Assembly: GCA_035712525.1 (NCBI GenBank)
Contig: DASTAO010000076.1
Location: 1-25,680, forward strand
Direction of reading: 5' to 3'
From: Candidatus Kapaibacterium sp.
Lineage (GTDB): Bacteria > Bacteroidota > Ignavibacteria > Palsa-1295
DNA length: 25,680 nt
Made by a program: the position numbers and the translations under genes. This document shows positions 25,280-25,458 of this stretch, piece by piece (position 1 is the stretch's first letter; every line of letters begins with the position of its first letter). Under the pieces are notes generated by a model. It saw nothing but the letters and a program-made list of their open reading frames with translations, made no database searches and was not told where the DNA came from.

Positions 25280-25300
25280 CGGATTCTTCTTTTAACTACT

Positions 25301-25329
25301 AAGCCTGCCGAATAACGGTGGGCTTTTTT
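25301..25329 (+). terminator. Intrinsic terminator of pckA
   Basis: AAGCCTGCCG-AATAA-CGGTGGGCTT followed by a T-run. Confidence 0.8.
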
Positions 25330-25458
25330 ATTTCTCCAAAATCGAAAGTACCCTCCATAACTTATTTAATATCACCCTAACTGGTGTACACCTCACTTCT
25401 TTCTCCCTCGCCAAAAAGTTTGGGAATGGAAGCTTTTAGATGTCTCATTGTGTATGTG

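Follow-up and report, generated by a model that had tools for sequence, protein, structure and literature searches.

Copy B is probably one of a large family of promoter cassettes

The segment at 25299-25456 on the minus strand of the window (the whole stretch of 25,680 nucleotides that was analyzed) is probably the downstream leader part of an orphan copy, here called copy B. The element to which it belongs is a modular promoter cassette, about 200 nt long and dispersed through the genome, that has multiplied in this Candidatus Kapaibacterium lineage. A preliminary description had read it as an orphan small RNA or small-peptide gene common to two copies, A and B, but that frame is mistaken, since the family is not limited to A and B. 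The two are indeed homologous: they align over a 79-nt arm at 85% identity and again, about 60 nt beyond it, over a second conserved block. The exact 13-nt promoter core TTTCGTATATTTG, however, occurs 62 times in the genome of origin, compared with zero occurrences of the reversed control, and instead of a two-copy gene we found at least 60 dispersed copies with neither a conserved structure nor a coding signature. As one of so many promoter-carrying repeats, copy B most likely arose as a by-product of a mobile promoter element rather than as a separate gene.

The genome assembly comprises 2.8 Mb in 489 contigs and is 81% complete. Either copy, used as a query, brought up dozens of matches in this assembly, and iterated nhmmer searches returned 62 cassette matches at E<1e-10 and 89 at E<0.01. 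Fourteen of these 89 matches (16%) lie within 150 nt of a contig end, where 5% would be expected, an approximately three-fold enrichment. The assembly is therefore broken by the repeat and the copy count is a minimum; the cassette probably contributes to the fragmentation of this MAG. A sequence-only model of the second conserved block (module 2; model R1) gave 66 matches in the same genome. With this model, module 2 was also detected in 13 of 24 genomes of the same family, at 2-53 copies each and in five genera, and no match was found in 16 genomes from other families of the class. Counts of module 2 within the genus were 0, 0, 2, 6, and 13. Among the genomes tested for the core of the promoter (P1), four congeners had it four to eight times each and one member of another genus had it once. 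The cassette has expanded about ten-fold in its own genome relative to congeners. Searches of plasmid and phage collections found nothing similar to it, and nothing relevant was found in the literature on Kapabacteria promoters and repeats.

Architecture of the cassette

The full cassette can be read as an AT-rich upstream region, P1, a 5′ stem-loop that is followed by a GC-rich hairpin in about half of the copies, and module 2. The promoter, the terminator, and the transcript ends assigned to it are predictions from sequence. Two subfamilies are distinguished by the upstream region: subfamily 1 (about 22 copies, A and B included) has two DnaA-box-like 9-mers and a small palindrome there, and subfamily 2 has another AT-rich block. 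About 22 cassettes of this genome have the DnaA-box-like pair (TTATnCACA), which precedes the −33 box by about 30 nt; in copy A it is at 7016-7036 on the plus strand. In another genus (loci L062 and L076; also L064) such a pair is found in inverted form upstream of the same promoter.

P1 is near-invariant. Its boxes, TTTG at −33 and TAnnTTTG at −7 with a spacing of about 19-21 nt, are of the Bacteroidota type both in copy B and in the family consensus; in other genera, P1 reads TTGACA, 17 nt, and then the same −7 box. About 20 copies in the genome share the 80-nt promoter arm at 77-90% identity. The variable segment that follows is 15-90 nt long and often begins with a small stem-loop, the arms of which differ between copies yet stay complementary. 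A GC-rich hairpin with A- and T-runs at its flanks was found in 27 of about 52 full copies. The stem of this hairpin has several compensatory variants and its end always falls about 26 nt before module 2. The distance from P1 to module 2 varies between copies. The hairpin looks like a bidirectional terminator. Module 2 itself consists of a G-rich run (AGGGAGG-like), GGTG(C/T)ACA, about 10 nt, TGA, about 4 nt, TAA, about 4 nt, and TTA(C/T). Across 121 copies from nine genomes, the first block is invariant at G, G, and ACA and the second at TG(A), TAA, and TT.

Copy B and the 3′ region of pckA

Copy B extends from 25536 to 25335 on the minus strand according to nhmmer. At its 5′ edge are two DnaA-box-like 9-mers that are 2 nt apart (25515-25534, minus strand), one of which is a perfect TTATCCACA. 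Its P1 at 25459-25490 (minus strand) is made up of TTTGG at 25490-25486 (−33) and TAnnTTTG at 25466-25459 (−7), inside the invariant 13-nt core. The variable spacer (25397-25455, minus strand) holds a small open reading frame (ORF1) and a weak AT-rich hairpin, and the GC-rich hairpin is absent. The module 2 core at 25357-25396 (minus strand) contains a second reading frame (ORF2) and the start of a third (ORF3); model R1 matches this region at 25334-25417. The cassette tail at 25335-25356 (minus strand), still inside the nhmmer envelope, is weakly conserved, and in the family alignments such tails sort into a few sequence classes. Beyond the tail lies the predicted intrinsic terminator of pckA at 25301-25325, which is good on the plus strand and poor on the minus strand, and the pckA open reading frame occupies 23693-25279 on the plus strand, convergent with the cassette.

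Much of what the preliminary description had said of the local arrangement was borne out. The minus-strand promoter has both boxes and these match the core that is invariant throughout the family, so that a complete, strong-looking predicted promoter aims into gene-free DNA convergent with pckA. Likewise, the pckA hairpin has a poor U-tract on the minus strand and a terminator was called on the plus strand only. Read-through antisense to pckA is possible, as had been proposed, with a GC-rich hairpin following the promoter in 27 other copies and none in copy B.

Orthologs of pckA were found in all five congeners at 82-85% identity. Four of them have an equivalent of the terminator hairpin 3′ of pckA and no cassette at that site; downstream of the gene they have the terminator only, next to different neighboring genes, and the fifth contig stops at pckA. 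Copy B would have landed in the stretch that separates the pckA terminator from the next gene's promoter, aimed at the 3′ end of pckA. In that position it has no gene to drive, and P1 probably makes a non-coding transcript of about 130-165 nt. This RNA may be terminated, weakly, where it meets the pckA terminator from the reverse side, or may continue into pckA as an antisense transcript. Because the promoter is intact, a minus-strand non-coding transcript toward, and possibly into, pckA is plausible. Copy B ranks 17th by score among the cassettes, with a perfect promoter core, an intact module 2, and no decay. This intact state could mean selection.

Insertion sites and neighboring genes

Copy A can be read as an insertion. 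The entire 272-nt spacer at 7001-7272 (plus strand), between a gene for a class-V aminotransferase and one for a SLOG/LOG-like protein, corresponds to the insertion, and the cassette match covers 7010-7221 (plus strand). Within it, all on the plus strand, P1 is at 7058-7088, the hairpin of the predicted bidirectional terminator at 7109-7135, and the core of module 2 at about 7155-7194. The site is empty in five of five congeners, the two genes overlapping by ATGA in four of them and lying 2 nt apart in one. In the window, at 6998-7275, the insertion has uncoupled this gene pair and the SLOG/LOG-like gene now starts with TTG rather than ATG or GTG. The only candidate for a target duplication is a single 5-bp match, GATAG, present at both edges of copy A (6996-7000 and 7264-7268); the right ends of other copies are undefined. 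No terminal inverted repeats bracket the copy A insertion and none are common to the family. One 15-nt AT-rich inverted pair was found that brackets copy B only.

Other loci gave a similar picture. A cassette on contig C35 shares its spacer of about 470 nt with a hairpin repeat of another kind and a tandem run of about 30 GGATGAA heptamers; the cassette is missing in the three syntenic congeners (3/3), in which the spacer measures about 60-90 nt. The cassette upstream of rplK is present in three genera and absent from two genomes of the same genus, and the one upstream of rpsL is found in this genome and in one other, where it is degenerate. The pattern, as read from these comparisons, is one of gain, loss, and recent expansion. 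The empty sites show that the cassette enters very short intergenic spacers, even between genes that are, to judge by their overlap, translationally coupled. The neighborhood of the cassette on contig C472 had no ortholog in congeners.

We considered a Y1/RAYT transposase as the mobilizing activity and rejected it, as counts of PF01797 do not track cassette counts across 25 genomes: G009 and G004, which have 32 and 13 cassette copies, gave no Y1 transposase match, and G011, which has no copies, gave 11. The genome of origin encodes four strong matches to Y1 (IS200/RAYT-like) transposases of about 160-170 amino acids (contigs C149, C338, C286, and C372), one with an internal stop, as well as three weaker fragments.

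The genes next to the cassettes were surveyed for the 62 best matches. About 46 copies are followed by a gene on the same strand, roughly 0-350 nt away, and these genes are unrelated as judged by their N-termini; they include rplK (L11), rpsL (S12), rplM (L13), the gene for L15, fusA (EF-G), dps, and a LOG-like gene. Such gene-linked cassettes would supply the gene that follows with signals for transcription and the gene before them with a terminator. About 13 copies, B among them, are orphans that point at the 3′ end of a convergent gene. Pfam named four of the facing genes, which encode a TrxB-like oxidoreductase, a sodium:solute symporter, an S13 carboxypeptidase, and a DUF1015 protein. The stop codons of these genes fall within the cassette tail or no more than about 25 nt away. 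Copy B is therefore one of a class, given that other orphans also face real genes, and it differs from them only in that pckA's own terminator lies between the cassette and the gene. For these roughly 13 orphans abutting gene 3′ ends, a function such as antisense control or a 3′-UTR or terminator role could account for the arrangement as easily as chance. A link to tRNA or other RNA genes downstream of the orphans was also considered and discarded, with just one copy having a tRNA within 1.5 kb.

Two observations concern the neighboring genes themselves. On contigs C161, C264, and C28 the cassette tail encodes the last few codons and the stop codon of the convergent genes, and the stop of the TrxB-like gene is the complement of the conserved TTA in module 2. 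In addition, a leader about 90 nt before rplK (loci L164-L168 and contig C467) is well conserved across three genera independently of the cassette; this is presumably an autoregulatory leader of the ribosomal protein type.

Alternative explanations

The orphans, copy B among them, might instead be genes for small regulatory RNAs that act in cis as antisense transcripts or in trans, with module 2 serving as a seed or protein-binding region. We regard this as improbable. In its favor are a strong conserved promoter beside a block of about 40 nt that persists across genera and has no predicted structure, the roughly 13 orphans that each point at a real gene's 3′ end, and the intact state of copy B. 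However, the same block is found in the 5′ region of about 46 unrelated genes, copy B is without a dedicated terminator, and the cassettes are recent insertions that are missing at orthologous sites. The expected RNA features were not observed either. A search of the window against Rfam 15 gave no match at the gathering threshold and only chance-level matches at E values up to 10. RNAalifold predicted 0 pairs for an alignment of 26 copies, and the predicted 168-nt transcript of copy B folds no better than shuffled sequences (z = 0.15), a stability that is not unusual. The preliminary description had named a lack of structural covariation among homologs, together with frameshifts in all frames, as grounds for refuting its reading; a mutual-information scan detected a subfamily signal only and no column pairs with Watson-Crick covariation. 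Taken together, the lack of an Rfam family, of consensus pairs, and of covariation and the z value of 0.15 do not support a structured small RNA.

Slightly less probable still is a lineage-wide regulon whose promoter and operator have been kept in place, in which case the similarity between copies would reflect convergent or strongly constrained regulatory DNA and copy B would be a remnant that lost its gene. The occurrence of module 2 in five genera, the presence of a cassette upstream of rplK in three genera, and the failure to find hallmarks of transposition are consistent with this proposal. On the other hand, copies are 85-90% identical over 80 nt, non-motif positions included, and clean empty sites were found in all congeners tested. 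The 62 copies in this genome, compared with 1-8 in five others from the same family, and the absence of the rplK and rpsL cassettes from genomes of the same genus also argue against it.

The last alternative takes the ORF2 frame of module 2 to specify a short leader peptide, translation of which would control the downstream gene; in our judgment this is very unlikely. The three minus-strand reading frames listed in the preliminary description do translate as given there: ORF1 at 25448-25377 (23 amino acids), ORF2 at 25375-25328 with a GTG start (15 amino acids), and ORF3 at 25358-25299 (19 amino acids). The two frames assigned to copy A (7176-7268 and 7193-7261) are likewise correct. The idea that two of these frames are mirrored between copies did not hold for the family, however, where they are not kept as reading frames and two of the three have no counterpart in most copies. 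ORF1 is inside the variable spacer, and the ATG of ORF3 is present in just 5 of 48 copies from this genome and 6 of 73 from relatives (11/121).

ORF2 required closer consideration. Its frame is open in most copies, and in 40 of 48 copies of this genome a Shine-Dalgarno-like box is followed by an in-frame start, often with GTG (or ATG) placed 6-9 nt after the AGGGAGG run. One or two stops were counted in frame, compared with about 36 expected from shuffled spacers, and T at the second position of five codons suggests hydrophobic residues. The stop depletion was nevertheless rejected as a sign of coding, as it is fully predicted by position-specific base frequencies (2.2 stops predicted, one observed). 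Third codon positions are conserved as much as the first and second, the mean entropies at the three positions being flat at 0.93, 0.95, and 0.94, and the ACA codon is invariant in 121 copies across genera. Moreover, a 1-nt indel falls within the frame in 25-38% of the copies (12/48 in this genome and 28/73 in relatives; 40/121 overall), and the distance from the conserved TG to the end of the frame ranges from one codon to more than 17. Other genera often lack the upstream start and the G-rich box, and the starts of the highly expressed genes rplK, rpsL, and dps have no Shine-Dalgarno box. The alignments thus indicate that the constraint on module 2 acts on nucleotides and not on a peptide. 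The small ORFs of copy B are incidental.

Module 2 as a possible DNA or RNA signal

What module 2 does at the nucleotide level can be read in two ways. It could well be a DNA-level signal, namely a second promoter or an operator positioned just after the terminator hairpin. A TG is present at a −33-like position of module 2 in 91-99% of the copies, and in about 40% a TTG occurs 24-25 nt past the conserved TG, a spacing equal to that in P1. On contig C158, a copy consisting of module 2 only fills a divergent intergenic region of about 160 nt without P1. Module 2 is also linear, asymmetric, and bipartite with fixed internal spacing, takes a 1-nt indel near its 3′ end, and keeps a constant 26 nt from the bidirectional-terminator-like hairpin, features that are seen more typically in DNA signals than in RNA elements.

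That module 2 would instead be an unstructured RNA leader or protein-binding site is somewhat doubtful. In other genera it is nearly always downstream of a P1-like promoter, and the supposed promoter spacer within it is unusually conserved. The −7-like box in no more than about 40% of copies, the conserved spacer, and the P1-like promoter upstream fit a role at the RNA level equally well. Two specific promoter assignments were tried and set aside: a sigma-70 reading (TGCACA box, 15 nt, TATAAT) has the wrong spacing and lacks conserved −10 positions, and a −33/−7 reading fits just about 40% of the copies. Likenesses to an RfaH ops site, a dif/Xer site, and sigma-32 boxes were also seen by eye; these are weak or confined to sub-groups.

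A broader role of the cassette as a portable control unit, beyond that of selfish DNA, can be imagined, though we think it unlikely. At least 60 operons, including those for ribosomal proteins and translation factors, would then be under one lineage-specific mechanism, in which P1 fires constitutively into the terminator and the unstructured module 2 (together with the upstream DnaA-box-like pair) is recognized by some factor that acts globally, for instance an antiterminator, an RNA-binding protein, or an alternative sigma factor. Copy B and the other orphans would be antisense or decoy members of this regulon.

Relation to known repeats and mobile promoters

The mobile promoter interpretation has a precedent in the putative mobile promoters (PMPs), which are similar segments upstream of non-homologous genes within one genome (Matus-Garcia, Nijveen, van Passel 2012; commentary in PMC3575422). 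The cassette shares with PMPs an identity of at least 80% over at least 50 nt between upstream regions, downstream genes that are non-homologous and non-paralogous, and occurrence in related genera, as well as the lack of an Rfam match and of a known route of mobilization. It differs from them in its defined modular anatomy (promoter, hairpin, and 40-nt motif) and in the empty sites found in congeners. In addition, PMP families are mostly pairs, whereas the cassette family has at least 60 members. By sequence comparison, the cassette family fits the published operational definition of PMPs and is a new, unusually large member of that group.

Removing a candidate small RNA or peptide gene from beside pckA leaves an unusually large and clean case of promoter propagation, in which coupled genes have been split and unrelated operons would have been given the same promoter and terminator. 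The movement of promoters without a recognizable transposon becomes testable in an uncultured lineage of the Bacteroidota group. The analysis also flags a 40-nt motif conserved across genera and a repeat that could mislead gene and small RNA prediction in Kapabacteria MAGs.

Other classes of intergenic repeats resemble the cassette in part. Correia elements (CREE) of Neisseria and ERIC and BIME sequences are short, non-autonomous intergenic repeats present in tens to hundreds of copies. Such repeats carry promoters and terminator-like hairpins, are co-transcribed with their neighbors, and can overlap gene ends. The cassette resembles these mosaic repeats in behavior. Terminal inverted repeats and a TA target duplication mark the Correia elements; in the cassette, by contrast, no terminal inverted repeats were found, the right end is ill-defined, and there is one complete, oriented promoter. 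Of the features of Correia-like MITEs, then, it shows insertion polymorphism and not the inverted termini. With REP/REPIN sequences the cassette has in common GC-rich palindromic hairpins in intergenic DNA near gene ends and the presence of Y1 transposase genes in the genome. Unlike REP/REPIN elements with their RAYT, however, the hairpin is just one optional module and the presence of Y1 does not track the cassette.

A promoter followed at once by a terminator is also known from lambda-type late control (PR′-tR′, 6S RNA), which is governed by an antiterminator. Twenty-seven cassette copies have a hairpin with a T-tract within about 20-60 nt of a strong, constitutive-looking promoter, which is a resemblance only: no antiterminator, pause signal, or binding element was identified, and copy B is without the hairpin.

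Other repeats beside the cassettes

Additional repeats were noted in the DNA around the cassettes, and the variable segment itself sometimes contains other repeats. In several copies, the DNA that separates module 2 from the downstream gene contains long tandem arrays of the heptamer GGATGAA/GGATGAG. The array of about 30 units on contig C35 (locus L010, about 1000-1370, minus strand) is one example, and others follow the cassettes at rplK and on contigs C248 and C175; similar heptamer runs are present in relatives, for instance at loci L119 and L122. At least two further dispersed hairpin repeats occur beside cassettes on contigs C35, C260, C112, C359, C487, and C159 and at locus L164 of a relative. 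One of these has the form GTCATTCTGAGCGAAGCGAAGAATGAC and the other is a C-rich/G-rich pair (CCCCTCC..GGAGGGG). With these hairpin repeats in the same intergenic regions as the cassette, the spacers are mosaics of repeat modules.
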